A stretch of DNA of 63,836 nt, the filler included, from Reclinomonas americana ATCC 50394 (taxonomy: Eukaryota), in assembly GCA_048213135.1 (NCBI GenBank). It is 5 parts of 4 records of this genome, joined end to end, with 100 filler letters (N's around TTAATTAATTAA, not from the genome) between each part and the next. Parts side by side here need not be neighbours in the genome. Positions count along the whole stretch, not along the records: positions 1 to 13,101 come from PS015457.1; positions 13,202 to 37,304 come from PS015457.1; positions 37,405 to 51,803 come from PS015458.1; positions 51,904 to 61,059 come from PS015459.1; 1 more part is not named here. One strand, written 5' to 3'. Of the stretch, positions 1-60,840 are shown in pieces. A program made the position numbers and the translations under genes. Within the stretch, counting starts at the first letter, position 1, and each line of letters starts with the position of its first letter. The notes beneath the pieces were generated by a model, which was given only the letters and a program-made list of their open reading frames with translations, ran no database searches and had not been told where the DNA came from.

Positions 1-3000
1 GATCGGCAACATACAGGAATCCGCGACCAACATCCAACGCCAGTCCAGCCGGATTGTTGAAGGAGGCAGCCAATCCCTGCGCGTCAACAGTACCGGCGCT
101 GCCGGACATTCCCGCCACAGTGGTCACTGTGCCGCTGTATGTAACACGACTGCAAACAAAAAGAAGCAGAAAAACAACGGTGAGCGCCTTCCGCAATGTA
201 CTCGCAGCAGCAAATCTTTGTTTCTGCAGTCTCACCGAATCGTGTGATTACCAGAGTCGCTGACGTACATAAACGCGGAGTTTGTGTCAACCGCAATGCC
301 GGAAGGTTGATTGAAGAGGGCGGAACTCCCCGGACCGTCGACACTGCCGGCAGTGAAGCCAGCCAGAGTGGACACGTAGCCGGAGGAGATCTTGCGGATC
401 GCATGGTTCAGGGTCTACAACAAGCAAAGTGTCACCAATGAAGACGAAGGAAAACATTTGACTAACAGGAGGCCACCCACCGACGCGACGTACACGTCGC
501 CGTTCACCAAGTCACATCCAACATCAGAGGGGCTACGAAGCGAGATGAGTAATGAATGCCGCAAATGATACGCGCAGGGGAACGAAACGAGTTGAAAGTG
601 GCTACAGAGATCGGGCCGTTAAGGAATCCGCTGGTCCCAGCCAAACCCGCCACAGTACTCACAACGCCTGCTGCGGTGACCTTGCGGATGGTGTGCGATC
701 TGGAAAAACAACAGATAAATGAGCAAAAGAGAATGAAGCAGAAAACGGAGAATGACGAAAGCGCACCCATTCTCGGCAACAAATGCAGTGCCAGTTACAT
801 CAACACACATGCGCTGCGCAAGACATAACATCATCGTGAGATATATCGTGCATCACAACAATTGCTCCAAACCCCACAAAAAGTGACGCACAGCCAACGC
901 CGAGAACCGGGCAGCCGCGCCGACGCCGTCTATGGTGCCACTGGCACCAGTGGCGCCGGCAAGTGTAGAAACAGTCGCTGCCGCACCGAACAAGCTTACC
1001 GACCGCGCCACCTCGAAAACATTGTTGGTTGTCGCCCCAGTGGCATTTGGGTTCACCTGTCCACTAAGAGTCGCAGTACTCGCAGTTGCGTCAGTGACAG
1101 CCGATGTTGTCACCAGAGGCACTGAAAACACGAAGCAATGCACGTCAAGCAATGATCATTGGCACAGCATACGTGCATATTATGCGACGAACCGGGAGAT
1201 GTCTGAAATGCACGCACTCCAGTCCGCTGCAGCGTCACACTGTCCGCAAATCGGAAAAAGTACGTGACCGACGGCATGAGGCTCGTCAGCGACAAGGACA
1301 CGTTGACTGCCATGGTTCCCGTCGCCGTCGCCGGTGATCCCGTGATAGACGCAGGTGGAACCACAACTTTCCGAATTGTGTTGTTTCCCGTGTCTGTGCA
1401 CACACACAAGAAGGGAAGCGCACACAAATCAAACAACGTGAGCCGAGATACCAGAGTGTACAGACTTCTTTCTCATTAACACACGCACCTGCAACAAACA
1501 GCCCGCCGCGGAATCGATCAACAACAACCCCTTGCTGTACAACCATCCAAAACAAAATGAGCCTTCTTCAACACGAGAGAGAATAAATACACTCACACAC
1601 ACTCACCGGAATGTTGAATCGAGCAATCGCTGCAAGTCCATCCGCCGACCCACTGCTCCCCGCAACACCTGCAATCGTCGTCACCGCACCTGCCGCACTC
1701 ACTTGTCGAATGTGTTGTCCCTGCACGGAATACAGGGAGAGACACAGGATGGGATCAAGATCACAGTGGGTGAGTGAAGAACAACAGCAGTCCCCTCAGT
1801 TCAGATTTTCGCAGACACACACGCAACATCAGCAACATAAATCACATTCGCCACCGGATCCACACCCACACCAAACGGTCGATTGAAATGCGCACTCACT
1901 CCCGTGCCGTCACTCGTACCCGTAACACCAAGCTCGCCCGCAAGCGTCGTAACCGTTGACGTCGCCAGCACAATCTTGCGCACCGCAAAGTTGCTCGCAT
2001 CCGCCACATACAGCGCACCACGCCCATCCAGCGCCACATCGGTCGGGAAGTTGAACCTCGCAGCAGACCCGACTCCATCAATCAATCCAGCCGTCCCGAG
2101 TGTGCCGGCCACAGTTGTCGCAATGCCGCTGAATGACACACGTCTGTGCGCGCACACATAGGTTGAGTGAGCCATCCTACCTCATGGTGCAAAAAGGCAT
2201 GCAAGCAAGTGCAACTCACCGCACGCTGTGATTCTGATACTCGGCAACATACACACACTCCGCTGCGCTGTCCACCGCCAGACCGCGTGGTCCATTAAAC
2301 CGCGCCACACTGCCAGTACCATCCGCAGCACCCGCACTGCCATTGCCAGCCACAGTCGACACTGTGCTGCCAGACACTTTGCGAAGCACATGATTCGAGT
2401 CCTGCACATCACACACATACAGACGCCAGTTTAGATCATCGCCATCACGCGCAATACTTCTCTCTCTCTCCCTCACACACACACACACACACACGCACAC
2501 ATACACACACACACACACACACAAACCAAACACGCATGCCACAGAACACTGTGACATCAATACTACGGCACCACGTCTCTCTATGTCTCCCTATCCGTAT
2601 ATCCTCTCCTCCCAACGCACCTCGCTAAAGTATAGATCACCCGTTGCCAGATTGATGTCGATACCGTATGGACTGCAAGACGAAGAAGAAGACCCAAATG
2701 AGATTACTTGCAGTCAAGCACACCACCACCAGCTCAGCTCAGCCCCAGCACAGCGCAACTTGTTCAACAGCGCCGACGACACTGCGCCATCAGTATATCC
2801 AGAAATACCAGCCTGTCCGACAAGCGTGCTCACCGCACCCGACACGTCGATCTTACGGATCGTGTGTCCGCCACTGCACAAAAGTAAAGAGAGAAAGACA
2901 ATGAGTAACAGTGAAACGATGCACCGAATGCAAACGGCAACGTGGTTGTGGTGGCGGTACACGCAACGTTGCCACGTACACGTTGAACGATGCATCAATG

Positions 3001-18800: not shown

Positions 18801-21800
18801 CTCCTCCCATCTCCCTCTCCCCATCTCCCACTCCCCATCTTCCTCTCCCCATCTCCCTCCCCCCCTCTCCCTCTCCCTCTCAGACCTTGAAACGCAGTCA
18901 TGTCGCCGAGAGACAGGTGCCCGCGAACAACATTCCAAATGAGCACAAACTGACTGATGAGGGTGACGGCACCAGTGGCCACCATCACAATGACGTTGAA
19001 GACGGTGGAAATGGCCAGCATGCGGTTGGACACCTTGGTATGCTCCCAGCAGGTGTCCTCGTAGCGCTTGGACTCGGTGGCCTCTCGTCCGGTGCTGCGG
19101 ATTCCGCGGATGCGCCGCAAAATGTCGTCGGCTACGTTGGAAGTCTCGCTCTGGGTCTGTACATGTTCCGGGATGCAGTGGTGAGAGAAAACATTCATCA
19201 CACATGCTGCTGAGGTGAGCGAGAGGACGTGATGACTGCAGTGTTTCTTCTCCCTATCGCGATCGATTCGCTTCTGTTAAATGCCTTTCTTTTTTCTCTC
19301 TTCTCTCTCGCAAGCCCTTCATCACTCTATTCTACTTTCCCTTCCACCCCCTTCTACCTCGACGCAACATTATAGAAGAGCTGCGACAAACCCCGGTGTC
19401 AGCACAGTATAATGGCAGGAGGCAAAGCACATTGGTGAACACTCACAATGGTTCTCTCGCCGAGCATCTTGCCCTCAACGAGCGAGACGCACACAATCAC
19501 CACAAATGCAACGTAGAACCCCTGGTGGAAATCAGCACTCGATCAGCACCCCCCTCTCTGGCACCGCCCAATGCATCCAGACACTCGACGTACGAACCGC
19601 CGCCATGGGAGGGTAAATGGTGAACATGATAACGGAGCTGCTGATGAACACAAAGAGTGGCTGCACCATCATGTAGAGTGCGTTCGGAATGCCGCACAGC
19701 TGCTCCATGTTGGTGACTCTGCCAGGCGAGTGTATTGTCTGTCAGCAGCAGCGGGAGTACAACTCATGCACAATGACTTGCTTCCGCAACAGTCGGGTGA
19801 GCAAGTCGCCCTGGTGAGCCGTGTGGAAGAAGCTCATACGTTGACAAAGCAGCACATCTACGAATCGGGTCTTCGCACGTTGCATGACCTGTTGAGGGAG
19901 AGCACTGCGCGTTCAGTAGTGGAAACCATGACTTCACTGATCGCAGCGCAATGATTTCTTTCAGTGGAACGAGCAGTCACCAACAAACGGGGGCTTCAAC
20001 AAGCAAATAAAAGAAGAACGAGTAGGTAACAAATACTATATATGTCGGCTGCTCGTTCTTCACTTTTAAAAACCATAGCATCAAAACATACAGCTACTCT
20101 TCCCCGACCAGTGCTTATGTGTTTTGCCTAGTCTTCGCGTGCCAAGGTCATTGTTGGCAAGGGATCTGTGGGCATTTGTCACGACGTTGCAATGTGGCGC
20201 AAACGTCCACAAAATCCTTGCCGTCGATGACCTTGGCACGCCAACAATATCTTATCACACTGCTTCCTCATCTCCAACAGTCATTCTCCCTTTCCAAGTA
20301 ATCACCAACAAGCCTCGTGTGCTCTTCTTCCACTTGTAGCTGTACATGTTGACTCTCCCTCACTTCGCCCTTCCTCACTGCTACCCCTAAACACTCACCA
20401 CATTGTTGATGTACATCGACAAGGTGACTGCAATCGTGCCAGTGACCTCTTTCAAGATGACGACTGCCAGCCACGCTAGCAGCTGGCCCTTTACGTTCTG
20501 CCAGTCACGCTCACTGTGCCATCACAGTCGCCAGCGTCATCAGTACGTGAATCTAGAGGACTCAAATCATCACATCGTCATCGCAACGCAACGCAGTGTT
20601 GTCGGTCCTCTCCAGCTCTTGCTGAACGGCTGTCACAATCTTGCCAATGAGGAGCGTATCAATCTGCTGCAATACCACTGACACCGTGCTGAGAAACATG
20701 AGCGTGATAAGAAGCCACTTCTCCGGACCGAAGAAACGCAGAACCCGCCACAGGAGCTTCAGGACGTGTTTGACGCTCATGCGCTGCTCGACGTCGTCGT
20801 CGCGACAGCCGAACAGGACGCAGCAAGAGTTGCAGCAGCCTCCTGTAGTCCCCGGAGTGCCTTGCTCGGGTGCCTGCGGCTGAGCGGCGTTCTGTTTGGC
20901 GAAGAGTGAGTTTTGGTGACAAGCGCATTGGTGTGGTGACTGTTACTTCCTCACCGACGGCGTCTCTGGCGATTGCGCGGCGGCCTCCGGGATCATGGTT
21001 TGGTGCATGGCGTACACGAGTGCACTAGGCGACACTGGTGACTGGACCGCGGGCGAAGGAGGACCATCCTCCTGTTGGCGTACTGGAGAAGCAGCTGCTG
21101 GACTAAAGCGAGCAGAAGTAGGTCTGTCAGACGCACGCATCGCGACCGATACTGGCCGCTGTGAGTGGTAGCGGTCGTCCGAGTGCTGCTGACCGCCGTG
21201 CAAGTGCTGCACTGGCATTGGCATGTACACTGGCTGAGCTCGCATGTAGCCATCGACTCCACGCACAGTGCGTGCCGGCATGGCGTTCGACATGTTGTAT
21301 CGCAGCAGCTGCAGCGAGTTGATCAGCTGCTCGAGATTCTCGTCGACCCGATCGCGGTTTTCCACGTCAGCGTCCGCAGGGGGCGCGTCGTCGTCGAACG
21401 AGACGGCGGTTGGCGGGGATGGCGATCCATACGGGCTCGGCGCATTCACCCCGGGTGCTTCGTTCCCAGAGAGCCCCTGTGTGCGTACACCATATGCTCG
21501 TGAGTTCGCGTGCATATGTAAAGGTCCACGAGCTTCTGTGTGCGACTAGTGCCAGAATACAGAGATTGTGAAAGCAAGCATGAAGGGCAGCAATCATAGG
21601 GTGTTGTGCATGAAGACTGCAGGCATTGCTGCGTGCACATGACAATGATGCGCAACTTGTGAGTGTCGGTCGCGAGAACCACGAGCTCGAGGTGGTGGCG
21701 GAGGGAACCCTGAGGGGTCGGATATGGCCGCTGCACCGGCGGCCGCTGTTCAAGTCACACGAAAGCACACAGCGCATTGATGAGGCACAGAATATCGAGA

Positions 21801-23203: not shown

Positions 23204-24951
23204 CTAAGACATCACCGCACGCGACGGCGGCGCAAACACCGCAGCGGCAGCAATAGCAGGAGCACGCAAATGCTGACGACTGCGTGCATCTGTATCGCCA
23301 CCCTCCTGTTCATGCGCAGTCGAGGTAGGTGTGGACGGCAACTCGAGAGGTGTCAACACAAGGCCTCTCGAAACGTGACCATGCATTGGCGACACTGGCG
23401 AGGACGGAAGCGGAGGTGGTGTGAGCGGAAGTAACAAAGCCGGTGGCGACGATGGTGACCGTGAAGCAGAATGCAACAAAGGCTCCACGCCACTCGCGCT
23501 GACCGGACTGACACTGTCGAACTTGACGCGCGCACTCTCAAACTGCCGCTCGTGCTTGTCGCGCAGCCGCTTCTGCAGTTGCCGCTTGCGCAGGAACCAC
23601 AAGAGCAGCAAAAGTAGCAAAAGGAGAAACAGCAACGGCAGGACCACGCTGAGCGCAATTGCCCAGTTGGCGAGTCCGCGACTCCCTCCGCTGCTGCTGC
23701 TGCTGCTGCTGGTATCTGTTGACGACGTCGAGATCGGACCTGACGGCGAAAAAACGCGAGAGAGCTGTGTCAGTCGCTGCGCGACTCGTGTGCACTGCAC
23801 ATGTCACGAAACTCTGCAGTGTGAACTCGGCACTCCGTGCGACCACCGATGGCTGATCGGCATCCATCACCGTCGCCTGCCAAGTCAGCAGCAACAAGTG
23901 AGTGTGTCCGTTTGAGAAAGAAGAAGAGAGCAGAGCACAGCAAATGTCACCTGATAAATGAGGTCCTGACTGGCAAGCGACGAGGCTGCCGAGAAGCTGA
24001 TGCTGTTGAACACGTCGTCGGCAGCAGCGCGTGAACTCGTGCTGTTGCTCTCCGCTGTGTTGACACATTAAAAATGAGACGAAAAGTCCACCTCCAACCG
24101 ACAGAAACAGCGTGGACACGCAACTGCACGTCGATGTAATGTTGAACGCTACGATCCAGAAATGCTGTGCACTGGCACCCGAAACCACCACGTGATTGAG
24201 GCTGCCAACAACTGCAACGAAATGATATGCGGCGAGTTAGTTCACGGAGATCGCGACAGCATGCAGCGCGGCAGCACGCCACGAAACTCGCAGTCGACGG
24301 CAGGCCACTTTCAGATGACGGACTCGTCGTGCCACTGCCAGTGACAATCGCAGTCGAGTTGCGCGGGTTGGCAGTGAGCAACACATGCACGCGCTGCGAG
24401 GCCGCGGCTCGACGCAGACACTGCCACTTGAGTGTGTAACCGTCCGTGTACTCGAGCACCGGAGTCGTCGTCGTGTTCGTGTTCATGACGGGTTGCAACG
24501 GAGGAGCTGCGGGGGAAACCAAACAGAGTCAGTGAATGTATCAATGGATTGCAGGAGAGGTATTACAACAAGAGGTGGTGGCACGATGCGCATGAAGACA
24601 CCATGCCGTGCTCACGTCACATACTCTCCAACACATCAAGAAGACACAGTGGAGCACTGAACACGAAGTGGTGGCACGAGGCAAGTACAAACACCAGACG
24701 GTGCCTATGCCAACGTCGATTGTGCCTTCAATCTTACTACATCTCGTCCTGCCGCACTTGCCTCGTTCACCTTTCCTCTCATTGTCTCTCAGCCTCCATT
24801 TTCCTCCACCTCACCGCCCTCCCACTTCCCCATTACTATCCCTCCTATTATCGAATGCCTAACTCGTACTAAATTTCGTGCCTTCCCCGCCACTCCCTTC
24901 CTCCCAACTCACCCAACACTGACAGCACATCNNNNNNNNNNNNNNNNNNNN

Positions 24952-37174: not shown

Positions 37175-37348
37175 CTGCAACGATGGCGGGAAGCAAGTGA
37201 GAGGGGAGAAAAAGGGGGTAGGAAGATGGAAGACGAAGAGGGGAAGAAGAAGGGGCGAGCGACAGGGGGGAAGCGACAGGGGGGAAGCGACAGGGGGAAG
37301 GGACNNNNNNNNNNNNNNNNNNNNNNNNNNNNNNNNNNNNNNNNNNNN

Positions 37349-37360
37349 TTAATTAATTAA
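37349..37360. other. Artificial six-frame-stop scaffold linker
   Basis: TTAATTAATTAA inside an N block. Confidence 0.97.
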
Positions 37361-38025
37361 NNNNNNNNNNNNNNNNNNNNNNNNNNNNNNNNNNNNNNNN
37401 NNNNGGCACGCTTTCTTTTATTTGGTGTCAATACTGCTGATTGGGCAATAGAGCGCGAGAGTTAATATGATGGCGGACGAGAGACAGCAGGCAATGAAGG
37501 ATGAAGAGACAGCTGGGAGAGCGAGTGGGATGAGAAGAATGGCGGACGAGCGATACAGAAAGAGCAAGGGAAACTGCGGGAAGACACAGGAGAAATGAGG
37601 AGGAAGAGACGGACGAGCGATGTGCTGTATCTCTCCCCCCACTCCCCACTTTTCCTGTATCTCGTAATTGTTCTCATTGTTCTTTTTCTCGTTTCTTCCG
37701 TGTCTCCTGCCCTGCCTGCTGTTTCTCGCCCTTCTGTGGAGGTGCGATGAGAGCAGCAGAAAGAGTGCAAGAGCGAGAGATGCAGAATGAGTAAGGAAGG
37801 GATGCTGGGAAACATCAGGATGGGCGAGAGGCAGGGGGGAAAGAGGAGGATTCATGTGGGGACAGAAGCGAGGGATGCAAGAGTCGACAGATGGGCAAGG
37901 TAGAGTGCTTGGAGTTTGAGAGTCGTAGGTGGAAGAGGGTGAGAGAGCATGGCTGACGTCGCAACATACTTCCCCATCTCGCCTCTCTCCGCATCCTCTC
38001 ACCGCTCTTTATTTTTCTTACGCAG

Positions 38026-40156
38026 TACTCGTCGTACGGCTATGTTGGTACGTGCTCCCGTCTCCCGCTGTGCTGTGCGTATTTGTGCTTGTGCTGAGTT
38101 ATGCCATCAGCCTACGATGGCCATGCCAACCGCCTGATTGTGGCCTTCAAGGGCACCGACGACCTCGCCGACACCCTGGCCGACCTCGACATGTGCCACA
38201 CCAAGCTGTGGGACACAGGTTCGTGCAATGTGTACATTGCGCTGTGCTTGCTTTCGCTGACACATCGCTTTAGGTGTCAAGGTGCACAAGGGCTTCCTGC
38301 GCTCATACGAGGTGCGTCATGGCCTCGCCCGCTTTTATGTGCTCCATCCGCTAATTGCTCCCATTTTGTGCAGGCCTGCAAGGAGCAGTGGTATGAGGAC
38401 TTTGACCGCCACAACAAGAACCACCCCGACGCGGAGATTGTCGTCCTCGGGTTCGTGTACTTGTCGTCTCCCTGCTTATCTGGCACGCACTGAATGCTCC
38501 CTCATGTTTATGCAGACACTCGCTCGGTGGCGCGCAGGCTACGCTGGCGTCGTTGGATCTGACCTACCGCCACAGCATTGACGTTGCGTGGGAGGGTACT
38601 TTCTCCTTGTGTCCCTTGTCCTTTTGTTTGCTTGCAGTTCCTCCTCCACATACTTCTCCCTGCCTGAGTTCCCTCTCCTCCCCCGTCCTAGTCTCCCGAT
38701 TACTCCTCTCTCCTTTCCTCCCTCTCCCGTTGTCTCTCCTCATCTCTCCTCTCTTCACTCCTCCCCTATCCTCTCCTCTCCCCTCTTTTCTGCTTCCTCA
38801 CTCTGACTCCTCGTTTGCTTTCACACGTCTTCTTTTACTTTCTCTCCGCTTCCTCCTCTTTCCTGTCCTCATCGTGTTTCACTCCTTTCATACTTGCGTT
38901 TTGTCAGTTTTCTCCCCTGTCGCTCTTGTTGTCCATTTCCTGGCTTCTTCTCATCCTCTCCGTCTCACTGCTCCTCTCCTCTTCAAATTCATCGTGCTCT
39001 TCCTCATCTGTCTCTTCTTCCGCCTCCCGCCCCCTCCCCCTTGTCCTTCCTCCTCTTTCGCCCTCCTCCTCCCCCTCACTTTCCCTCCTCCCTCCACCTC
39101 GTTCGCCCTTCTCCCTCATCCTCCTCCCGCCTCACTTCCATCTCCCACTCCTTCCATCCCTTTTACCCTCCTCCCTCTCCCTGCCCTCCTCCCCCTCCCC
39201 TCCCTCGCCTCCACCCTCACTCTCCCTCCTCCTCCCCGCCACCCACAGCCGAACCGCATGATGGTATTCACTTTCGGCAGCCCGCGCGTTGGCGCCGACA
39301 ATTCGTTCTACCCGTTCTACATCAGCGAGATCCCGCTCGGACGCTCGTGGCGCATTGTGCAGTTGCGTCTCTCGGTGGACAGCAGTTCCTTTCTGCATTA
39401 ATTCTCACATTCTCCTTCTCCACTTTGCAGCAACCACGACATTGTGCCTGGTGAGTCTTTTCTCGGTGTGAATTTCTACGTACTGTTTCTTGATCTCACA
39501 CATCTCTCTCTCTCTCCATTGTGCAGACGTGAGTGATCGTGATGGAGAAACAAGTGGTGTTACTCAATAATCGAGCTTATTAACCCTTGCGTCTTCCCGC
39601 AGTTGCCGCCGAGCTACTTCAACTACGAGCACGTGCCGATCGAGGTGTGGTACAACAAGGTGCGTTCGTGCTTTTGACAAGCCATTTCGCTTCGTTCCCT
39701 CTCTCACCACTCACTCTCTCCTCGCAGGACAACACCCAGTTCAAGGTGTGCGAGCCGACCAAGGACTGCGGACCCCGTTGCGTTGCATTTCCCCTCCAGA
39801 GAAATGCATGCTAGCGTGTGCTCACTCTTGCCGTTTCCGTGCACAGAGCTCAACCTGTCGTCTGCCGGTACGCTTGCTTTGCACATTCACACACGCTCAT
39901 CTACCACTCATGTTTCTTTTGTTCTCCTCGTGCCGACCGCCAGACCACCACTTCTACGTTGCGTTGCCATTTCTTGTTCACCTTACACAACGGACAATCG
40001 TCTTATACAAACACGCACACACAGGTCGGCGTGCCGATCGACTGCGGCCTCAAGAGCGTGCAGATCGACGACGGCGCCTATGTGCGCGCCCTCGCCCGCA
40101 ACACGCACCGCTTCAACATGGCCGCCAACGTGTCGGAAGTGGAGCAATCCGAGTAA
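38026..40156 (+). CDS. Class 3 lipase (Lipase_3), multi-exon, 5' partial; contains a 2-nt microexon
   Basis: The spliced product contains LIVAFKGT, KVHKGFL, VLGHSLGGAQA, FTFGSPRVG, RIVHNHDIVPDLPP, YEHVPIEVWY and DHHFYVG. Confidence 0.93.
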
Positions 40157-40631: not shown

Positions 40632-43600
40632 TGTGTGTGTGTGCATTGTGGGTTTGCGAGAGATTAGGCGTCTGTCGGTGACGGATAATCACGCCTATTC
40701 TTCTTCTTATTCTCCTTCTTCTTCTTCTGCTGCTGCTTCCTCCTCCTCCTCTTCCTTCTTCTTCTTCCTCCTCCTCCTCCTCCTCCTCCTCCTCCTCCTC
40801 TTCTTCCTTCTTCTTCTTCTTGTTCTTCCTGTTCTTCTTCTGCTTCTTGTTCGTCTTCTTCTTCTCTCCTCCTCCTCCTCCTTCTTCTTGTTCTTGTTCT
40901 TCTTCCTTCTCTTTCTCTCGCTCTCGTTACTGACTGTTTTCTTTGTTTGTTTGCTTCCGTAGGCGTTGCATGTGTTGAATGCGAGTGTCGGGCGCGACAC
41001 GCATCTCAGTGAGACCATGGTGAAGCACACGAGCAAGCCGGCGAATGATCCGGCGGCGTTGTACAAGCGGGCGCCGCTGAGTACATCACTTACTGTTGCG
41101 TGGCTATGGGGGAGAGGCAGAGAGGGTGGGGGGACGTTTGAAGAGATATCGAACCCGATATCGGAATTCACAGTGCTTTCTTCTCCCTCTCTCCATTTTC
41201 TTTCATTCACTCTCAGAGGGGTGCACGGAGAGAGAGTCTCCGTGTAAAGAACGATCAGACCACACATTTCCGATCGTGGGTTCGATTTCTCTCGCCGACT
41301 CTCTCCCTCGCACTCTCGGAGTGATGTTGGCAGGTGCACGAAGTAGAGAGGAGAAGCGATCAGAACACTGCTTGTCGATCGGGGTTTCGATATCTGTCAC
41401 TCGATGTGCCTCTTTCTCTCACTCGGAGTGGGGATGTTGTTGACACATGCATGGAGAGACGATCAGATTACTCATTTCCGATCGCGGGTTCAATTTCTCG
41501 CTCCTCTGACATTCACATTCCTCCGTCTGCATTCTCCCTCATCGGAACGCGCTTTGCGAGTCGTGGCTTGCCTCTTATCTGTTTTTCCCAGTCTCATCTT
41601 TCACTCTCAGAGGTGCAGCTCCGTGCAGATTGATCAGAGCGCTCGTTTCCGATCGCGGGTTCGATATCTGTCACTCGTGCCTCTTTCTCGCGTTTGCTCT
41701 CTATCACTGAGGGAGTCGCCGACGCATATTCGACATCGCGTGTCCCTCTTTGCTCTCCCCACTCTCTTTCTCTCTTGCTCTTCCGCGAGTAGGGCATTAT
41801 GCGACGCTGCACTCCGACAACGTGTTTGGCCGCTCCTCTACTTCTTCTTCCCGCTGCACCTCATCTACATAGATCGAGTTCACAGAGCGCTGCACTCCAA
41901 TCGCTCCTCTTCGGCCTTCTTGCCTCCGCCTGCATCTCGCTCTCTGAAAGTTGGGAAGAATAACAGCTATGCACAACAGTAGGCATAGCATTCTGATCGG
42001 ATTCCGTATCTCTCTCTTCATTTCTCCCCTCTCTCCTCCTCTCTTTCTCCCTCCCTCTCGCTCTCCTTCACTCTCTCCTTCTCACTCACCGTCCCCTGCG
42101 CGCAGTACTCACAATCCCGCGACCCACGCGCCACTGGCTCCGCGCACCGCACGAGAATGATGGTGACGCAGTCGACGCAGCACGCGGTGCACCGCGGTGC
42201 CGGCCATCCAGAGAGTGTACAGCGTGCCTTCAACGACCGATTGATGAGTGGCGTCAAGGCCGCAGTGGATAAGACGGCCACGGTGAGTGGAAAGAGGGAT
42301 GCAACTTTCGGTGCTTTCGTCTCACGCCGCACTACAGTTCAAGACGTACACGGATCCGATGTTGGACCATCAGTGGCGAACGACTAACCGCAACGCGCTG
42401 CGTGGCCACAGCGACGTGCTGGACGATCCGTTTCGTTTCTGCCGAGGGAGAAGAGAACAGAGTCATGTGTCTCGTCGCTCACTCTTGATTCGATGCAGTG
42501 TGACGTGGGCCACGACGCAGGGGCAGCGTAGTTACTTTGTCGATGGTGGCGATGTGCCGATTGGTGATTCGGGTGAGTACTCTCTTCCCCTTTGCTCTTT
42601 CCCCTTGTCTTCTTCACCTTGCTCTTCCTGCTTGCTTTCTCGCTTACTCCTCCCCTTGCTCTCTCCCCTGTGCCTTTCCCCCTGTGCCTTTCCTCCTGTG
42701 CCCTTCCCCCTTTGCCCTTCCCCCTTTGCCCCTCCCCTTTGCCCTTCCCCTTTGCTCCCCCTGTTCTCTTCCCCCCTTGCTTTTCCCCCTTTGCTCTTCC
42801 CCTCATGCTCTTCCCCCTTCGCTCTTCCCTCTTTTGCTCTTCCCCCTTTGCCCTTCCCCTTTGCCCCTCCCCTTTGCCCTTCCCCTTTGCTCCCCCTGTT
42901 CTCTTCCCCCTTTGCCCTTCCCCCTTTGCCCCTCCCCTTTGCCCTTCCCCTTTGCTCCCCCTGTTCTCTTCCCCCCTTGCTTTTCCCCCTTTGCTCTTCC
43001 CCTCATGCTCTTCCCTCTTTTGCTCTTCCCCCTTTTGATCTTCCCTTTTTTGCTCTTCCCCCTGTGCCTTTCCCCCTGTGCCTTTCCTCCTGTGCCCTTC
43101 CCTCTTTTGCTCTTCCCTCTTTTGCTCTTCCCCCTTTGCCCTTCCCCTTTGCCCTTCCACCTTTGCTCCCCCTTTGCCCTTCCCCCTTTGCCCCCCTTTG
43201 CTCTTCCCCTTCGCTCTGCCCCCTTTGCTCTTCCCCTCATGNNNNNNNNNNNNNNNNNNNNCTCTTCCCCCTTTCCCTTTCATCTCCGCAGCTGGGGGCA
43301 GCCGCGACGGCATGAGCCTCAAATCACCCGTCCGCGCGGTCAAATCGCAAGGCTTCATCGGCCTGCAGACCACCTACCAGGCGTTCCACACCAACCAGCG
43401 GGAGCACCCGCTGTACCCGAGCAGCTACGACCCACTAGGCAATCGCGTGCACCCGACGGTGCCGCAGGGCGTGCAGAGACCACAGACCACGTACGGTGAG
43501 TTGACACTGGAGCGGCCGGGACTGCGAGACGAGAAGGAGGACGGCTTCCCGCGCTCGCACGTGTTCGACGCCAAGCGTGGCCACGTGCGCTTCAACGACG

Positions 43601-43976: not shown

Positions 43977-45759
43977 CTATTGATGGTGTGGTTGCGGTTG
44001 CTGTTGCTGTTGTTGTTGCGCCGCGGCGGCGGCGTTTATGTGCGCTGCCATCACGACTTCCTCCACAGCCTCTTGCACGGCCTCCTCCACGACAGCATTC
44101 GGTGAAGCGGCAAGAGCCTGAGCAAAACGATGGAACCGATTGTTGTACTGGCGCGAAGAAAAGGAAGAGCACAGTGAGTTCTGGTTCACAGTGAGGAAGC
44201 AAGAGGAGACGCACCTGTCCGTGGACCCAGTAAGAGAAATGGTCACAGACGCGGATTCCCGTGATGCCAGGCACGTCAGGCAGTGGCCCGACATTGCCGA
44301 GCGGTCGGTCGAACTTGCTCATGAGGCGAAACATGGATTGTAAAAGAAAGTCCTGCGCGGGAGCAGCAACGTGAGTGTGCACGCGACTGGAAAAAGACTC
44401 ACTCGCGTGCGCTACCACGCCACCTTTGGCGTGAAATAAATAAACGTGTGTTCCAAGGCAGGATCGACCAGCAACCGAGTACTCGCCGTCATGGTGACAG
44501 CGGGGGCACACAAGTGGAGCTGTGCGTGGAGTTGAAGTGAGCACGTGAGACACTTCAATCACAGCTGCCTCTCTCTCCCTCTCGCACCTCGTCGGGTCGA
44601 TGGCTCTTGGGAATCTGCGAATCTCATGAATGAGTGACCACATGAGAGCACAAAGAGGCGGACAACGCAACGAGTTGCAGGGCTTCGAGCACGTGCTTGC
44701 AACCGACTGTGACAGACAGTAAGCCACTCACGTTTCTAAACATCCTCTTCCATCCCACACGCACAAACGCAACGAGAGTGCGCCACGATGCGAACGCGAT
44801 CGTGGTACAAACGAAGCGATTCTATCTCCTGCGCGAGATGATGCGCGCGGCGCTCGGCCTCCAACTCGGCCTTGTGCCACTGATACCACAACGAACCAAG
44901 AATGATGACAGCGTCCTGTGCACTCATGCCCACAGTGAGCCACCCAGCTGCAGATTCACAGATGCTCCACCCGCGTGCACCTGCGCAGTCGAGGCCAGCA
45001 GCAGCTCGGGGTTGAACTTGCTCAAGCTGCGCGCCTTGCTGTAGACCACATACACCAGCGAGGAGATGGTGGTCCACGGGATCGGAATACGCCCGTAGCC
45101 GGGAAACACGCGCCCACTCGGCCACTGCCAGCCATACAACTACAGCAGACGACGAGGGTGAGCTTAGGAGGAGACGGTGTGAGCGAGGAAGGCAGCGCAC
45201 CCGCGGTGACCACTGATGCGCTGGACTGTCGACAAGCACCTCGTGGCACTTGATCCACTCACGAAACGATTCCGGTCGCTCACTCTGCCAATAGCGATCG
45301 TCAGCAAGAGGAAGACGAAGACAAAGAAGAAACCGAATGATCGATCACCGGTGCAAGGAAGCCTGTGGCGCACACAGAGGGCGACAATGAGCTCACGCGA
45401 TCAATGAGGAAAACACGACGAAAAAGCGATATACCTTTGATGTACAGAGTAGCCTCTCGATCGACATCTGCGCCCAATCATTGATCAGCAAGAGGTATCA
45501 ACTGCCATTGTGTCTCACTCACGCACGCACCTGCGCCTCTCTGATAGACATGCGATGGGGAGCACGGGATGAGCTTTGTGCCGCCCTTGCGCGCATCCCA
45601 CGCGCGTCGCTGTGTGAGTGGCAATCGTTGCGCGGCGCGGGTGACGACGGGCGGAAGATCGCGAACGGTTTTGACGACTCCGCGCACGAGTTCTTGGGGT
45701 TTGTGTTGGAGGGCGGCGGGGAGCTCGCGAAGGAGCTCGCCCACGCCGGCGACCACCAT
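43977..45759 (-). CDS. Alpha/beta hydrolase (DUF726/DUF900-like), multi-exon
   Basis: Splicing gives LYIKGFL, YGWQWPSG, the nucleophile elbow RIVAHSLGCKHVLEAL, LHLCAPAV, YFTPKDFLL and VHGQY (putative Ser-Asp-His triad). Start codon uncertain. Confidence 0.75.
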
Positions 45760-46362: not shown

Positions 46363-46690
46363 ATGCACGCGCGCACACACCGCCTTCTCCTCATCGCCCT
46401 CGCCCTCGCCGCGGCCTTGGCCTACACATGCACCGCCGCTCCCGACAAGCCCGTGTGGCCCACCTCCTTTACGTTACGCACACTCACTCAATACACAAAC
46501 TCCGATGCCAACTCGGGGGTCACTGACTGCACAACACGAACAGCGCGCCCTTTGGTCTCAACTCCGTCGTGCCAAAGTGTTGCGTCTCTCTCTCTCTCTC
46601 TTGCAGTCTGCTCTTCTTCACTGCTGTTACTTACTGTGTGCACACGCGTGCAGTTTCCAATGGTAATGACTGTGTGTGTGTGTGTGAGTG

Positions 46691-46731
<41 letters not shown>

Positions 46732-49409
46732 TAAAGTGTGTGTGTGTGTGTGTGAGGGAGAGAGAGTGAGTGTGAGAGAGTGTTAGTGTGTCTTTCTGTC
46801 TTTCTCTGACTGTGTTATGTGTTTGTTTGTGTGTGTGTTTGCAGCAGTCAGATGCTGTACCGCTTTGACAACACGATTCAGGCGCAGCGCATTGACTACT
46901 TCCAGCACTGCTTGGTGAGTGGAGTTGAGCATGTAAGAAAGAGAGAGTATTTCTCCGCGTACTCACTCTCTCTCTTTCTCACTCATGCAGCGTTGCGTTC
47001 TTTGTGTGTGTGGTTACTGGTCACTGTGACTGACTTTGCTCACCTGTGTCTCTGTCTTTGATGCATCATGATTAGCGTTGCGTTTTCTTGACTGGTTTTC
47101 TTCCTCAGCTTTTGCACCTGGTTTCTCACTCTTTCTCTCTCTCTGTGCAGGCTTGTGCACTGGGACGCCTATCGTTTCCCGTGCCAGGTGAGCGGAGGGT
47201 TGTGTTTTGTCTCTCTTTGTCTCCTCGCGCGCGTGACTGACTGCTTGTTTGCGCCAGTTGTACTTCCTGCCCGCTGGTTTGTGTGGCAGTGTGTGTTTGT
47301 ATGTGTGTGCTGTTGTTTGGTCATGGTGTGTGTGGTGTGCAGGTATCTATGTGCACCAGCCGCAGACCGGACTGGAGGTGAGTCGCTTCCTGCCTGTGCT
47401 TCTCTCTCCTCCTCTCTCTCTTCCGTTCGCCGCCGTCTCTCTTCCTTCGACATTATTTCTCGGAATATCTCTCGTCACCTCCCCTTTTCTTTCTTTTCAT
47501 CCAACCTTATCACCTTCGTCTTCCTCACCTCTCTCTGCTCTTTTCCTGTTTCAGCTCTTCCTCTCTGCTGCTTCGCCTCTTTGCGCCTTCTTGCCTTTCG
47601 ACCTTGCATTCCTCTTCCCTTTTCCTTATTCCTCCTCCTTCCTTTCCGTTCCCTTGTCACTCCAATTCACCTTCACAATCCTCGGCATCGCCTCTCACTG
47701 CTCTTTCCTGTTTCAGCTTTTCCTCTCTGCTCCTTCGCCTCCTTGTGCCTTCTTGCCTCCCTTCGAACCTCACTGTTTCCCTATTCCCCCTTCCCTCTCT
47801 GTCCGTTTCGCTCCTCCTTCCCCTTTTTTCTTTCCCCCGTTTCCTTCCCTTTCTTCCGCACCCTTTCTTGTCTACGTCTTCCTCGTTGTCTGTCAATGTT
47901 TTTCTCGAATCTGTGCTCTCTTCGCTGCTTTCCATTTCCTTGTCTTCCTCCTCCTTCCCTTCGCCTCCGTCATCCTCGTCTTCACCTCTCTCTGCTTTTA
48001 CTTTTGTCAATGTTTCTTGTCTCCAGCTTCCTTCCCCTCCTTCTCCCTTTGACCCCCTTCCCCCCCACAGTGCTGCATGATGACCGCCAATGTCGGCGCC
48101 GTCCCGCCCGATTTCCTCCGTGGCTTCAACTACTCGAGCGTCGAGTCGGCCATTGACTACTACGGCAAGGTGAACGCATGTATCTTAGTCCTCGCTCGCC
48201 AGGCATCGTGTGCTCATCACCTCCACTTCGCAGACTCACCAGTGCAACTACTGGCGTGCGTGAGATCATCTCTCTTCCACAGTTGCATTTTGTTACACTC
48301 ACTCGCTTATCTCTTCTCGTTCACGCACACAATTGTAGTCGGCGAGGAGGGTTTCGGTGCGTATTGCTCTCGCTGCAAGCCGCATCTCTTTCCATTTCTC
48401 ATGCTGTGCTCCACGCAGGCTACTGGACCGATGTCACCACCGGCTTTGACGTGCACTTCCGCGACGGTACGCTCTCCTCCCGACTGACCTTGCCTTCTTG
48501 CAACTCTCTTCCGCACCGCTTCTCATGTTTCCAACTCTCCTTGCCCCTCCTTTTCTCCGTCGCCGTGTTGCAAGTCTCCTCTCATATCTCTTTCTCCCCT
48601 CGTCTCTCGCCTTGTCCAACGCTCCTCTTCCATCCCTTCCTCCCTCCCCGTATCTCGCTTTTTACAACTCCCTTCTCCCTCTGCATCCCATATCCCTCGT
48701 CTTCTTGGACCTCCTTTCTCTCTCACCTCTTTTCTCTCCCGGCCTCATCTTTCCCCTCATCCATCCCTCTCCTCGTACTCCCGTCACCTCTCGCCATCTT
48801 GCATATCTCCATTCTCATACCTCCTTCCCCTCTTTCCTCCGCTCCCTCCCCGTTCTCACCTCCTCCTTCGCCTCTCCGCTATTCTCTGTCACGTACCCCT
48901 TCCTCGTCACGTCCCGCCACATTGCAACTCTCCTCTCACCCCGCCCTCCCGTTTCTCTTCACCTTGCAACTCTCCTGTTCTCCCTTTCTTGCTCACTTCC
49001 TTCCCCTCACCTCTTGCCTTCTGCATTGCTCTTCCCACAACCCTTTTCCCTCACCCTTACCTTCTTCCCCCTCCCCCTCTCCCTTCCCCTCTTTCTTCCC
49101 CTCTCGCAGGCCCCACGGGCGTGACGTGGAACTTTGGTGACTTTGCCGTCAACACGGTCGACGTGAAGGAGTTCGCTCTGCCCGGTTTGTGTTACCCCCT
49201 TGTACGCGCACACACGCTCTTCCCCTCGCCTCACCTCTGCTCACTTGTAATACATGCACACACACACAGACGACGTCTCCAAGTGCAGCACCAAGTGCCC
49301 GTTCCTCGGCGAGGACGTGCGCTACGAGGAGCACACCATGGACCCGATGGTCAAGCTCGCCGCCGCGCACCACCGTCGCGCCGCCTCCATTTCCCTCACG
49401 CAGCAGTAA
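46363..49409 (+). CDS. Secreted ependymin-related (EPDR-like) protein, highly fragmented, with 1-nt microexons
   Basis: Signal peptide MHARTHRLLLIALALAAALAYTCTA, then PVWPTSF, YRFDNTIQAQRIDY, ECCMMTANVGAVPPDFL, TWNFGDF and EFALPDDVSKC. Family assigned by motif recognition only. Confidence 0.7.
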
Positions 49410-49560: not shown

Positions 49561-49851
49561 ATGATGTCCCTCATGCAAAGTGTTTCGTCTCTCCCCGCCT
49601 CCCGCCTCGCGCACCGCCCACACACGATGACTCATCTCCCACTCCTGCACACACAGATGTCCCCGTTTGACGGCGGACTGCCGACGTTTGTCGCCGTGAC
49701 TGTGTGCCTCCTGACTTTTGCCGGCTTCCTCATTCGCCACATTCTCACCTCGCGCGGCCCCAATGGCGAGAGTCGCACACAGCTGCTCCACGAGTCCCGC
49801 GGTCGCCAGGTCGCAGAGAATGATCTGCAGGACTACGTCTCGTACTATGAG
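49561..49851 (+). CDS. Probable N-terminal exons of the sterol C24-methyltransferase (membrane anchor and QDYVSYY)
   Basis: MMSLMQS|MSPFDGGLPTFVAVTVCLLTFAGFLIRHILTSRGP...QVAENDLQDYVSYYE resembles the plant SMT2 N-terminus. Intron 49582-49656 has a GTTTCG donor; a gap follows. Confidence 0.6.
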
Positions 49852-50908: not shown

Positions 50909-51802
50909 TTAGGCCTTCAGCGGCTTCTGGAACACGCAATAGTACCTGCAGAGTGGCCGTCACAGGTGACGTCAGCGAGTGCGGCTGCTTCACAAAAAAG
51001 AACAAAGAGAGACGACGGCACGCAACATGGGAGTGAAGATACCGCACTCGCCAGCGTCCGACAGATCCTTGGCGGTACGCATGAGCAGCGAGCTCACACC
51101 GACGGTGCCCTTCGGGGCCCAGCGGATGAACTCCAGGAACTTGCAAGTGAGGTGCGTCACCCAGAACGAAATGCGGCCGCGCTTCAGCGGGTTCCACCAC
51201 GGGATCTGCAAGTGGATCGCTGCTGTGAGCAACAAAGCACGACCGAGCACCGAGCAGAGGCTCAAATATTCTCGCAAACCTCAGCGTCGTCCACCAAGTC
51301 CTTCTCCATCACCACGTCAAAGCCGACCGAGCGGGCCTTCTCGCCAATGTCGACACGGCGGCGCATCTCGGGCAGGCCGTTGCCGAGGTTGATGGCCTCG
51401 ATGATGCCGCGGTGCTCGGGGTTCTCGTGATCGTACTTGTCGGTCTGCGTATTGTTCAAGCATGTGAGCAAATGCATCCCCGCGCGTCTCAGCAGCTGTG
51501 CCACTCACCGTCACCCACTCGTACACGGCAAACTTGCCACCGGGGCGCAGCACACGGTATGCCTCGGCGTACATGTCCTCCACCTTGGGCGCGTGGCAGC
51601 TGGCCTCAATCGCGAAAATGGCATCAAACGAGTTGTCCTCGAACGGCAGATCGAGGAAGTTGGCCTGCAGCACGCGGCACGTGGACGAGAAGCCGTCCTT
51701 CTCAATGTACTCGTTGGCGCGCTTCACCTGGTACTCGCAGATGGTGACGCCGGTGATGTGGGCGCCGGAGAAGCGAGCAATGTTGCGCAGCGGGCCGGCC
51801 AC
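50909..51802 (-). CDS. SMT: Sterol C24-methyltransferase (SMT2-like), C-terminal part, 4 exons
   Basis: GPLRNIARFSG, LPFEDNSFDAIFAIEASCHAP, YRVLRPGGKFAVYEW, INLGNGLP, PWWNPLKRGR, APKGTV and GIFTPMYYCVFQKP. Confidence 0.93.
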
Positions 51803-51847
51803 ANNNNNNNNNNNNNNNNNNNNNNNNNNNNNNNNNNNNNNNNNNNN

Positions 51848-51859
51848 TTAATTAATTAA
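51848..51859. other. Artificial six-frame-stop scaffold linker
   Basis: TTAATTAATTAA inside an N block. Confidence 0.97.
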
Positions 51860-51956
51860 NNNNNNNNNNNNNNNNNNNNNNNNNNNNNNNNNNNNNNNNN
51901 NNNCCCTCTCTCTGTGTCTCACTCTGGCTGCACGCTGACCGCTGTCTTGTGTACAG

Positions 51957-56429: not shown

Positions 56430-56474
<45 letters not shown>

Positions 56475-56479
56475 GTCGT

Positions 56480-58196: not shown

Positions 58197-60840
58197 TCAC
58201 GAGGATGCTCCCGACAGCGGCGCATGTGGGATCTCCTGACTGTAGGCAATGTGATTCTCGGGCACCGGTAACCGGAAGGGGCCGGCCAAGTTCACCTCCA
58301 CCTCGATCGGCAGCTCCACCTTGGAGCTGTACAGGCAGATGGTGGGGAAGAGTGCGTATTCTGGCACAGAAATGCTGACTTTGCCACTGTACACGCGCCC
58401 TCCAGGAGTTAGCGCTGAAGGGAGGAGCGACACGAGGGCGATGTACGCAACTAGTGGCCAATCGAGCGCACGAGTTCGCCATTGCGGAAGAACTGCATAA
58501 ACTTGCGATCCTGGTCCAGAGAGATGCCCCACACGTCGCCCTCCTCAATGGCGGTTTGCACATAGTCCGCACGGCCGCTCAGATAAAACACTGCAGCGCA
58601 GCAGTGAGATACATGTGGAGTGATTATGGACTGCTCTTCTTCTCTCAGTACCTCCCGTGCTTTGCAGTCCGCACGCGAACCACTTGGACGGGTCACGCAG
58701 TGGACACGTGCGGCCGGGGATCACACCGCGCGTGTGCATCAGCTTGTCTTGTTGCACGTCCCACCCAATGCTGACACTGTGATTGGAGTGTCAGTCAAAC
58801 AGTTTCAGCGCATGTGCGAAGAGGCCACCAAACCTCGAGCCAGGCGCGTCTGGGAAACGGTGAATGTACACCTCGAAGTAGAACTTGCCCCAGTCCGTGT
58901 TCAGCTTGCCGCTGTCGGTCTGTACCGACATGTACTTGAGAGGGACCTGTTGCAAGAGACAGGAGTCAATGAAGAGCAGTGACAGACGTCTCGTTCTGCG
59001 CTTGCAGGTCACCTTGGTGCTCATCCGCAACCCCAGTTCGTCAAAGGCCAAGTTCGAGGACGCAGTTTCCTGCAAAAGTAGACACAATCAGTCCTCAGCA
59101 TAGCGGCTGGTCCACATCCTCCCGTAAAACGCACCCGATTGAGAACGACTTTCACCCGCCGCTTTCTCCGATTGTCAATCTCCACTCGCAACTGGTCGGG
59201 GAACGGTGTTGTGCCGGATTCGAGTAATTCAACCAGGTCCTCGATTGTCTTTCGTCTGACCAACCGCACGAAGGTCAGTCAATCAGCGAGAAGAAACCAG
59301 GGAATAGGACACGCCACACCTTAGATCCTCAGTAAAGATCAGCTGCCGATATCTCAGCTCCTTCTCGAGGTGTTCGTGTTGAATGAAANNNNNNNNNNNN
59401 NNNNNNNNNTACTGGGCCAGTCTTTCAGTCTGCTTATCTCTCCTCTTCCTCTCCCTCTCAATGCCTCTCTCGCTTTCTCTCTTTCTCTGTCAATCGGCCT
59501 TTCGGCCTCTCTCTCTTTCTGTGTTATCTTTTCCTTCTTTCTGTCTGTGCGCCTCCAAGCCAGCCTGTCTGCTTAAGTCTCACTCTTTTGCACACATTCT
59601 CTGGGTTTGTATATTTCCCACATTGCCTGTCGCAAGTCTCTACTCGCCTGTCTCCTCTCTCTCTCTCTCTCCCTCCCTCTTCTTATCATTCTTCTTCTTT
59701 TCATTCTTTTCTGTATGTATGTCGATTATGTTTGCCTTGCTGATCTTCCTTCTTTCCATTCTCCTTTCTCACTGCCGTTTGTCATTCTTTCCGTCTGCCT
59801 GTCTCTACGTCTCTCCTCCTTTCCCTTCCATTTCCCTCTCCCCTTTTTCCCCTCCCTTTCCCCCTCCTCCCCCTCCCTCGCCCTCACCTCAAATCCGTCA
59901 CCTCCAGCGCACTCGACAACAAGAACAACTTCGACAAACCCTCCGGCTCAAAAATAAACGCCGTCGCCGCCGCATTGCGCTCCTGCTCCCGCTCCAGCGT
60001 CTGAATCTCCGCACCCGAAACGCGCAACACAAGAGTCCTGCGGCACGCAGTCAGTCACAACTCACCCGTCGCCAACCAAACAAGTCATCGCAACTCTGCG
60101 TCCTGACTCTCGCGTTCACACAACGAATTCTTCTCGTGCTTCAGGTGCTCACAGATGGTCTCCACCTTCTTGATCTCGTTCTGCACACAGGCAGGAGTAA
60201 TCGGTGAGTGAACAGACTCATTGAAGCGGGAACCTTGCGCGTTGAGCTCGACCGCGAGCTGAAACCAGCATCTCTCTCTCTCTCTCTCCTCGCACACGCA
60301 CCTCCATGTGGAACTCGTACATGCGCTGCAAATTCTTCAAATCCTTCTGGAACGACGCCTCGAAATCCTTCTTGATCGCCGCCTTGCGGTCGTCGCACTC
60401 ACGACTGCCACGCACAGAGAGAGACATACCGTCAGTCGCAGAGACAGCAGAGCCCTCCTTGCCCCCCATGCGCAACTTGATCAACGCCTCATAATCGTCG
60501 CGCTTCTTCGCAAAATCACCTACGAGCTCGGCAATCGTGTCGTCTCTTCGCTTCTTGGCGGCCGCCACCTTGTTGGCCAGGTCGATTTCCTGCAGAGGTG
60601 GTAGAATGAGCAACCACTCCTCTCACTCCCCGTCGTGCTGCCTGCACGCAACTCTCTGACGCGAATCCGAGTCCTTGGAGAACGCAGCCATCTTCTTGAT
60701 ATTATCTTCACTGTACATGCCAAAGGTGTTGAACTTGGCCAAGTCACCGGCCATGTCGTCCAACACGATCACCGTGTCGGAGCGGTCGAGGTCCAGCCGG
60801 TCTTCGTCCTCGATAAACAAATTCTCCATCACCATGCGCT
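58197..60840 (-). CDS. Coiled-coil protein with possible BTB/BACK-like segment and C-terminal SPRY (B30.2) domain; 5' partial
   Basis: GKFYFEVYI, VSIGW, EEGDVWGISLD, FMQFFRNGELV, LFPTICL and VNLAGPFRLPVP are SPRY-type motifs. Upstream exons are charged and helical. Confidence 0.8.

Follow-up and report, generated by a model that had tools for sequence, protein, structure and literature searches.

A GTTGCGT class of probable 5′ splice sites, following exon ends other than G, in a very intron-dense stretch of Reclinomonas americana DNA

Many introns in a eukaryotic, very intron-dense stretch of Reclinomonas americana DNA (63,836 bases, about 55% G+C, 4,865 N; the whole stretch is called the window here) begin with GTTGCGT, which resembles an ordinary 5′ splice site (donor) carrying one additional T. 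GTTGCGT, together with the minor forms GTTTCGT and GTTGCG[C/G/A], probably constitutes real 5′ splice sites, those of ordinary GT-AG introns, and splice models suggest that roughly a quarter or more of the introns start with it. The solid result is the association between the donor class and the last base of the exon. Support for the class is good, both as a pattern in the sequence and as a collection of probable splice sites.

The motif is far more frequent than base composition would predict. GTTGCG occurs 78 times in the window (31 on the plus and 47 on the minus strand) among 8032 GT sites, and the full GTTGCGT is found in 32 copies, compared to 12.9 (standard deviation 3.5, largest 21) in dinucleotide-preserving shuffles, of which 0 of 100 reach 32. 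An earlier note on this DNA had listed 34 sites (30 GTTGCG, 3 GTTTCGT and 1 GTTACG) as a donor class seen only after exon ends other than G, and all 34 were recovered in place and on the right strand, each after A, C or T. Donor-like positions, i.e. exon ends on the coding strand, account for 27 of the 32 GTTGCGT copies, comprising 25 sites of the earlier list and two further predicted donors that start at 24124 and 58451 (both minus). The other five are not donors: the copy at 52730 (plus) is coding sequence within a RAMA domain, those at 1085 and 17322 (plus) are antisense to minus-strand genes, and those at 61588 and 61644 (plus) lie in GT-rich DNA with no gene assignment.

Splice models select the same motif. 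A donor-blind dynamic programme for spliced open reading frames (ORFs), whose inputs were GT..AG boundaries, an acceptor/branch score and codon log-odds, returned GTTGCG as the commonest donor hexamer (13 of 138, next to 9 GTGCGT and 8 GTGAGT). In a nucleotide-level version that permitted any exon length it was joint first (12 of 123, with 12 GTGAGT and 11 GTGCGT). A later model, which learned its donor table from its own output after the first pass, predicts 149 introns and uses 25 of the 34 listed sites. Its introns divide into 34 with extra-T donors (GTTNCG), 47 with ordinary donors (GTNNGT) and 68 others, many of which are suspected to be false because their median length is greater (94.5 nucleotides, nt) and their donors have no consensus. 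The suggestion that the class is a major one is borne out by these 34 of 149 model introns, and equally by four of the 12 introns of a hand-curated lipase gene and one of the three in a sterol methyltransferase gene. Altogether, members of the class are found in at least 10 genes and on both strands.

At 16 of the 34 listed sites, removing the intron leaves a protein that lines up with homologues, with a Pfam profile or with internal repeats, and these junctions come from GT-AG boundaries. Four further sites rely on family motifs, ten are ab initio and frame-consistent, and four belong to no support class. Homology checks were confined to contiguous single-exon queries. Fourteen of the collinear sites lie on the minus strand in NHL-repeat genes and were measured against intron-less NHL repeat units as an internal ruler. 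The GTTTCGT donor at 582-588 (after C) gives ATFN|SPSD, collinear with NHL units, and is used by the model. GTTGCGT at 1821-1827 (after T) gives YVAD|GQHIRQV, collinear but two residues under the NHL consensus; GTTGCGC at 2753-2759 (after A) gives ALLN|NPYG, collinear with NHL units; and GTTGCGT at 2961-2967 (after C) gives YVA|TGGHTIR, collinear and one residue under the consensus. Each of these three has a recent duplicate with the same base before it and the same junction evidence, at 9860-9866 (GTTGCGT), 10783-10789 (GTTGCGC) and 10999-11005 (GTTGCGT), respectively. Four GTTGCGT donors after T are likewise NHL-collinear: 4135-4141 (YVSD|HYSYTVRQV, used in pass 3 of the model and not in pass 4), 6394-6400 (YVSD|HYNHTVRQV), 12223-12229 (YVAD|TVNHTIRQI) and 12809-12815 (YITD|RNNNSIRSL). 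The GTTGCGT intron starting at 13283-13289 (after A) spans a gap linker and, with its acceptor at 13041, gives the NHL-collinear ILADH|DNNTIRKI. Finally, GTTGCGT at 34360-34366 (after C) yields RFNQP|YGIVLD, also NHL-collinear, and at 34559-34565 (after T) YVAD|QTSNSIRSV, which equals intron-less NHL units in length. The junctions at 4141, 6400, 12229, 12815 and 34565 all follow the repeat pattern Y-V-[A/S]-D|x-x-N-H-x-I-R, and those at 588, 2759 and 10789 follow F/L-N|x-P-x-G. The three duplicated donors lie in a portion of an NHL-repeat gene that has recently been duplicated in tandem (about 900-3100 and 8900-11200, minus), and introns are 86-100% identical between the two copies.

The two remaining collinear junctions are in unrelated genes. 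In the class-3 lipase gene the GTTGCGT donor at 38583-38589 (plus, after C) is placed by Pfam Lipase_3 collinearity across a 666-nt intron: the exon ending at 38582 corresponds to profile positions 70-88 and the exon from 39249 to positions 93-125, with four residues between them for four profile positions. This intron (38583-39248) is CT-rich, a multiple of three in length and stop-free in the exon frame, so that a naive ORF (38406-39398) reads straight through it. In the sterol 24-C-methyltransferase gene, the GTTGCGT donor at 51020-51026 (minus, after T) is collinear with homologue C-termini. When it is spliced to the acceptor at 50946, so that the next exon begins with base 50945, it gives GIFTPM-YYCVFQ-KPLKA-stop, which is exactly collinear, whereas read-through gives nothing similar. 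Homologues were fetched with one exon and aligned to three, and F-[T/S]-P-[M/L], then six residues, then a K/R-K-P block is found in 17 of the 22 fetched homologues examined.

The base before GTTGCGT is A at 7, C at 11, T at 14 and G at none of the 32 sites. Since the background probability of G before GTT is 0.16, the chance of 0 in 32 is about 0.004, and that of 0 in 27 about 0.009. Among model donors, G precedes 1 of 34 extra-T sites but 28 of 47 ordinary ones (Fisher p = 5.6e-8); that is, 33 extra-T and 19 ordinary donors follow other bases, the extra-T donors otherwise being preceded by C (13), A (10) and T (10). The single extra-T site after G (59031, GTTGCGG) is not credible because it lies 6 nt from the end of its chain. 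The hand-curated lipase gene shows the same division: seven of eight ordinary donors follow G, the eighth follows a 2-nt exon, and all four GTTGCGT donors follow C or A. The contention that the class occurs only after exon ends other than G thus is true of the listed sites in the window (34/34), yet is partly forced by codons, as eight phase-0 sites come after Asp codons (GAT/GAC), where G is impossible. Three recent duplicate pairs are also counted among the listed sites (1827/9866, 2759/10789 and 2967/11005). One repeat position, F-N|x-P, carries paralogous introns of either class (extra-T at 2759 and 588, ordinary at 7296, 5086 and 36511), which implies that a one-base change within the intron can switch its class while the exon end stays unmoved.

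Apart from their first bases, extra-T introns match ordinary introns in the features measured. Median length is 78 nt in extra-T and 76 nt in ordinary introns, a CAG acceptor is present in 32/34 and 45/47, and the pyrimidine fraction is 0.64 in both. A branch-like YTNAY motif 8-45 nt before the 3′ end was found in 34/34 and 46/47, respectively, at a median distance of 24 and 20.5 nt, and all 34 extra-T model introns start with GT and end with AG, although the acceptor score of the model favoured branch-like motifs and GT-AG ends were demanded by the models. The branch motifs CTCAC, CTCAT and CTGAC appear in introns of both classes.

The extra base is always T: the model uses GTTGCGT at 22 of 32 copies, and GTAGCGT at 0/3, GTGGCGT at 0/17 and GTCGCGT at 0/12. 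In the 34 extra-T model donors G is at +6 by definition, and T is at +7 in most; the full GTTGCGT is present at 27 of 39 sites of this type. The description of the class as a normal donor with an extra T accordingly fits in the displaced G and in the inserted base, but not in the rest of the site: the model donors comprise 34 GTT[G/T/A]CG and at most two GTTGAGT, although GTGAGT (22) and GTGCGT (15) are both common among ordinary donors. Several other donors also start with GTT. The methyltransferase donor G|GTTTGCG (51273-51279, minus) resembles the class with two extra T's and follows G; its position is loose, as the homologues have a 13-residue variable loop there. GTTTGGT donors at 3081-3087, 11119-11125 and 58827-58833 (all minus) come after G and keep the +5 G, which is ordinary-register behaviour and matches human GUUUGGU sites, for which Table 1 of PMC4856993 reports the canonical register and a U-ψ pair.

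How such a site might be recognised is suggested by its spacing. Lined up by the downstream G-T, both classes follow G-[G or T]-T-N-N-G-T. With the conserved downstream block aligned, the class reads G-T-TGCGT and the commonest normal donor, taken as G|G-TGCGT, would differ only in that the intron's own first G takes the place of the exon's last G. Because the spacing in G(+1)...TGCGT equals that in G(-1)|GTGCGT, which a shifted register requires, the U1 small nuclear ribonucleoprotein may bind one base out of register. The standard 5′ end of U1 is AUACψψACCUG (PMC4856993), so that G+1 would lie opposite C9, U+2 would be unpaired and U+3 would lie opposite A7; the need for a U opposite A7 fits T as the sole extra base, and the scarcity of exon-final G (1 of 34, against 28 of 47) is consistent with G+1 assuming the pair with C9. 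Cleavage would then be set before the only GU, and the GTTGCGT form would be employed where the exon end is not G. The exact cleavage position in the RNA, like the whole pairing mechanism, is something we infer, and we hold shifted-register recognition of GTTGCGT donors by U1 tentatively, with confidence a little short of even.

Several points weigh against shifted-register recognition. By hand count, GUUGCGU forms only five pairs with standard U1 in the shifted register, broken by two mismatches (the canonical register gives two to four). The near-exclusive C at +5 (34 GTTNCG, at most two GTTGAGT) stands where A would pair with ψ5 of U1, so that the standard shifted-register model mispredicts the consensus of the class. 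The shifted register also predicts A at the exon end, opposite U10, and A is not enriched there. G avoidance itself is weaker than the raw count, as Asp codons and duplicated genes partly impose a base other than G. Independent support is missing at 18 of the 34 listed sites, and protein collinearity fixes a boundary to the codon only, which means that a one-base shift of both intron ends is excluded only by the GT-AG rule. Regarding the C at +5, either CGT is selected by something other than pairing with U1, or the U1 of this lineage differs, or a second small nuclear RNA (snRNA) exists. The earlier proposal of shifted U1/U6 pairing or a variant snRNA may hold in part: the displaced spacing and the T-only insert fit a shift, and the +5 C misfits standard U1. 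A search of the window with Rfam gave 0 matches at gathering score, and no U1 or U6 gene; at E<=1 there were two matches, mir-3149 and isrG, both far under their gathering scores.

Alternatively, the class could be read by a lineage-specific snRNA, being either a U1 with an altered 5′ end (e.g. a G facing the +5 C) or a second U1-like RNA complementary to GUUGCGU in normal register. The result would be a separate class of 5′ sites, served by the same branch and 3′ machinery as ordinary introns. It would account for the tight consensus of the class, GTT[G/T]CG[T], which is not the ordinary spectrum plus T (at most two GTTGAGT against 22 GTGAGT), for the +5 C, which is opposite to the preference of standard U1 ψ5, and for the fact that GTAAGT, the best match to standard U1, is used at 0 of 9 copies. 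However, the ordinary donors (GTGAGT, GTGCGT; G before 28 of 47) resemble targets of a standard U1, the two intron classes are alike in their 3′ parts, and a fully matching RNA would need about five changes from U1. To our knowledge the 5′ end of U1 is near-universal in eukaryotes, which also counts against such an snRNA. We regard it as unlikely, though next in order after shifted-register recognition. One specific form, a U1 with G at position 5, was rejected: it predicts a stronger need for an exon-final G in GTGAGT than in GTGCGT, and the hand count is 11/22 against 10/15. GTAAGT is the textbook best donor, and none of its nine copies, counted on both strands, serves as a donor in the model. 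Position +3 is G in nearly every case in this DNA. In the most far-reaching form, one spliceosome would work with two 5′-site codes, G|GTRMGT and the equally tight H|GUU(G/U)CGU, the second serving a quarter to two fifths of introns and being excluded after G. As a standard U1 could not read its obligatory +5 C, the second code would depend on a U1 with a changed 5′ end or on an additional U1-like snRNA, U6 would accommodate a site one base longer, and the genome would also tolerate exons of 1-2 nt. Taken as a whole, this picture is speculative and unlikely.

Normal U1 register with one U (+2 or +3) bulged, as in the human bulge +2/+3 class, would fit the pattern exactly, since the site starts with GUU, has its conserved G at +6 and its conserved U at +7, and takes T as the sole extra base. 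This register is validated in human, with 68 predicted sites (PMC4856993, Table 3). Yet a G at the exon end should then be favoured as it is in ordinary donors (28/47), because it would add a pair with C9 of U1 beside G:C8, and it is found before 0 of 32 GTTGCGT copies and one doubtful case among 34 model donors. As the C at +5 is just as much of a problem in this register, a bulged U appears improbable.

It is also conceivable that the boundaries are misplaced or that the motif is no splice site at all but an element close to exon ends (a splicing enhancer, coding bias or an assembly error in T runs), with the true donors elsewhere. In its favour, 18 of the 34 sites rest on models or family motifs or lie outside the support classes, passes of the model beyond the first learned from its own output, five of the 32 GTTGCGT copies are clearly not donors, and collinearity cannot place a boundary to the base. 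In contrast, 16 junctions are codon-collinear with independent references and the donor-blind passes already select the motif. Moreover, every extra-T model intron has a branch-like motif at normal distance, 32 of 34 have a CAG acceptor, and random homopolymer errors would not hit only frame-consistent exon ends. We consider this explanation very improbable. Lastly, the GTTGCGT introns could be copies from one mobile introner family, with the donor provided by its conserved end and the base other than G set by its target site. This idea is largely refuted for the window and barely tenable: the very high intron density (12 introns per about 720 nt of lipase coding sequence) and the exons of 1-2 nt do suggest massive intron gain, but when the 149 model introns are searched against each other with BLAST, extra-T introns match one another only in the three recent gene-duplicate pairs, the remaining matches are other duplicate pairs or short, mostly 16-60-nt stretches, at least some in GT/CT-rich introns such as that at 46579, and nothing is common beyond the 7-mer.

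The lipase gene (38026-40156, plus) illustrates how finely coding sequence is divided in the window, with exons of 2-132 nt. The shortest, a 2-nt exon AC at 39527-39528 (plus), lies between two GTGAGT introns of 74-76 nt (39451-39526 and 39529-39602) and is picked by the nucleotide-level model. It looks necessary because HDIVP-D-LPPSYF, part of a lipase motif, is out of frame without it. Two putative 1-nt exons, each a C directly before a GTTGCGT donor, are predicted by the nucleotide-level model at 46991 (exon and donor 46991-46998, plus) and 47076 (47076-47083, plus). The intron units around them measure 76, 84 and 74 nt, each with its own branch-like motif and acceptor. That the class flanks two 1-nt exons, as suggested earlier, agrees with the choice of the model; the frame of the exon downstream is barely favoured (codon score 0.1 against -2.6 and -0.9), and both exons therefore stay hypothetical. 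At 44214-44215 (minus) the model joins an acceptor straight to a GTGCGTC donor (CAG|GTGCGTC), giving a zero-length exon that resembles a recursive splice point and is probably a model artefact.

Outside the collinear set, four listed GTTGCG donors are placed by family motifs. GTTGCGG at 19784-19790 (minus, after T) gives GDLLTR|LVTNMEQL, which we take to fit an ABC membrane-domain motif; Pfam and PDB searches with single exons found nothing. At 39362-39368 (plus, after A), GTTGCGT gives RIVH|NHDIVP, presumably the class-3 lipase motif, and is used by the model. GTTGCGT at 39958-39964 (plus, after C) is picked by the donor-blind model and gives DHHFY|VGVPIDCG, in which DHHFY|VG is assumed to be a lipase family motif. 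GTTGCGT at 44767-44773 (minus, after C), which the model does not choose, gives RIVAHS-L-GCKHV with what we believe to be nucleophile-elbow spacing.

The ab initio sites of the list include, besides the donors behind the two putative 1-nt exons, GTTGCGT at 19362-19368 (minus, after T), which follows a 12-nt exon of the ABC transporter gene, and GTTGCGT at 20586-20592 (minus, after C), 39777-39783 (plus, after C), 44665-44671 (minus, after C, acceptor uncertain), 46579-46585 (plus, after T) and 60646-60652 (minus, after A). GTTTCGT at 42430-42436 (plus, after C) is found ab initio also in the donor-blind pass, and GTTGCGA at 60088-60094 (minus, after A) completes this group. For four listed sites the placement is doubtful. 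No convincing upstream coding frame was found for GTTGCGC at 21650-21656 (minus), where several acceptors are possible; GTTGCGT at 41095-41101 (plus) has one frame-open acceptor, at 41216, and nothing further; GTTACGC at 46473-46479 (plus) has a frame-open acceptor at 46543 and is not chosen by the model; and GTTTCGT at 49582-49588 (plus) can be joined to the exon at 49657 only with an upstream frame other than the coding-scored one. Five predicted donors, all on the minus strand and after A, were absent from the earlier list: GTTGCGT at 24118-24124, picked even by the donor-blind model, and, ab initio, GTTTCGT at 23806-23812 and 24281-24287, GTTGCGT at 58445-58451 and GTTGCGC at 60470-60476. 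The protein at 58451 reads as SPRY-like, an assignment that we presume, and Pfam with single exons found nothing there.

A Pfam scan of 148 long open frames of the window identified several NHL-repeat genes (1-13 kb, 28-35 kb and 36-37 kb, minus), an ABC transporter gene (16-21 kb, minus), the class-3 lipase gene (38-40 kb, plus), a methyltransferase gene (51 kb, minus), a RAMA/TPR gene (52-55 kb, plus) and a kinase fragment. Homologues identify the methyltransferase as sterol 24-C-methyltransferase (best 61% identical). Large Ser/Thr/Ala/Val-rich repeat proteins with recurring ...Y-x-[VIL]-x-W-x-C... units are encoded at 28237-30816 and 25.4-26.9 kb (both minus), and the long-open-frame scan assigned no Pfam family to them. 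Other searches found few relatives, and no search returned a protein from this organism itself. A homologue search with an 860-residue ORF returned none within the length range covered, an ABC membrane-domain ORF had zero homologues at E<=0.01 among longer proteins, and a two-exon lipase stretch had 0 matches against 1.84 billion representatives. Pfam gave only three matches for 14 single-exon queries, and two ABC exons searched against PDB sequences gave nothing at E<=10, with Pfam on single ABC exons likewise blank. The window further contains four identical 100-nt spacers (13102-13201, 37305-37404, 51804-51903 and 61060-61159), each consisting of 44 N, TTAATTAATTAA and 44 N. The core TTAATTAATTAA has stops in all six frames, and the spacers look like artificial linkers joining contigs. 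One lies inside the intron starting at 13289 and another cuts the 5′ part of the methyltransferase gene.

If the class is indeed major and sharply defined, it would be a natural experiment on the coupling of U1, U6 and cleavage site, and would inform both the co-evolution of exon end and intron start and the limits to drift of the 5′-site code. Should two 5′-site codes really coexist, nature would offer an example, on the scale of a genome, of snRNA recognition that is register-shifted or dual. For annotation the consequences would be practical. Perhaps one intron in three or four here would be missed or misplaced by a gene finder relying on one donor matrix, and a missed donor class, combined with exons of 1-2 nt and an intron for roughly every 60 nt of lipase coding sequence, would wreck predicted proteins. 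In the literature searched, which did not cover subscription journals, an abundant GUUGCGU donor class was not found described for any organism. Enrichment of GTTGCGT was also not seen in metagenome methyltransferase loci (0-1 copies in the 11 examined of 80 kept), which range in G+C from 0.29 to 0.65 and are at most 57% identical.

Known systems resemble single features of the window. U12-type introns are marked by a long conserved 5′ site and, near the 3′ end, a conserved branch box. Like the extra-T introns, they form a second intron class with a tightly conserved 5′ site, and theirs is read by an snRNA of its own. This identity was nonetheless rejected: the 5′ site GTTGCGT bears no likeness to the U12-type consensus, and branch motifs, branch distance and acceptor are those of ordinary introns. 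Single-nucleotide exons have been described in Arabidopsis (PMC4674806) and in CYP621A of Fusarium (PMC12940212), where transcripts or orthologue assembly are reported to back them. There, as here, a 1-nt exon keeps the frame between ordinary short introns, while those at 46991 and 47076 are predicted by the model alone.

The closest parallels are human 5′ splice sites at which shifted and bulged U1 registers are experimentally established (PMC4856993). In the bulge +2/+3 sites (Roca et al. 2012, cited in PMC4856993), as in the class described here, the intron starts with GUU, the +5 G and the +6 U sit one position further on, and one U is formally extra. The human sites profit from a G at the exon end, which is missing here, and number 68 predicted sites, compared to a major class in the window. 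In the shifted register of Roca and Krainer (2009), re-measured by Tan et al. (2016), G+1 is proposed to pair with C9 of U1 instead of C8 (PMC4856993). Such sites share with ours a GU-initiated intron, a conserved G and U lying one base further downstream and cleavage at the GU. They differ in that the sites of the window, which are predicted from sequence, read GUUGCGU with an obligatory +5 C that standard U1 cannot pair, and are strictly linked to exon ends other than G. Abundance differs as well. All validated non-canonical registers together account for 1.5% of 201,541 human sites, as tabulated in PMC4856993, and were proved one site at a time; in the window, 34 of the 149 introns that the model predicts belong to the extra-T class, or 34 of 81 if only those with a recognisable consensus are counted.

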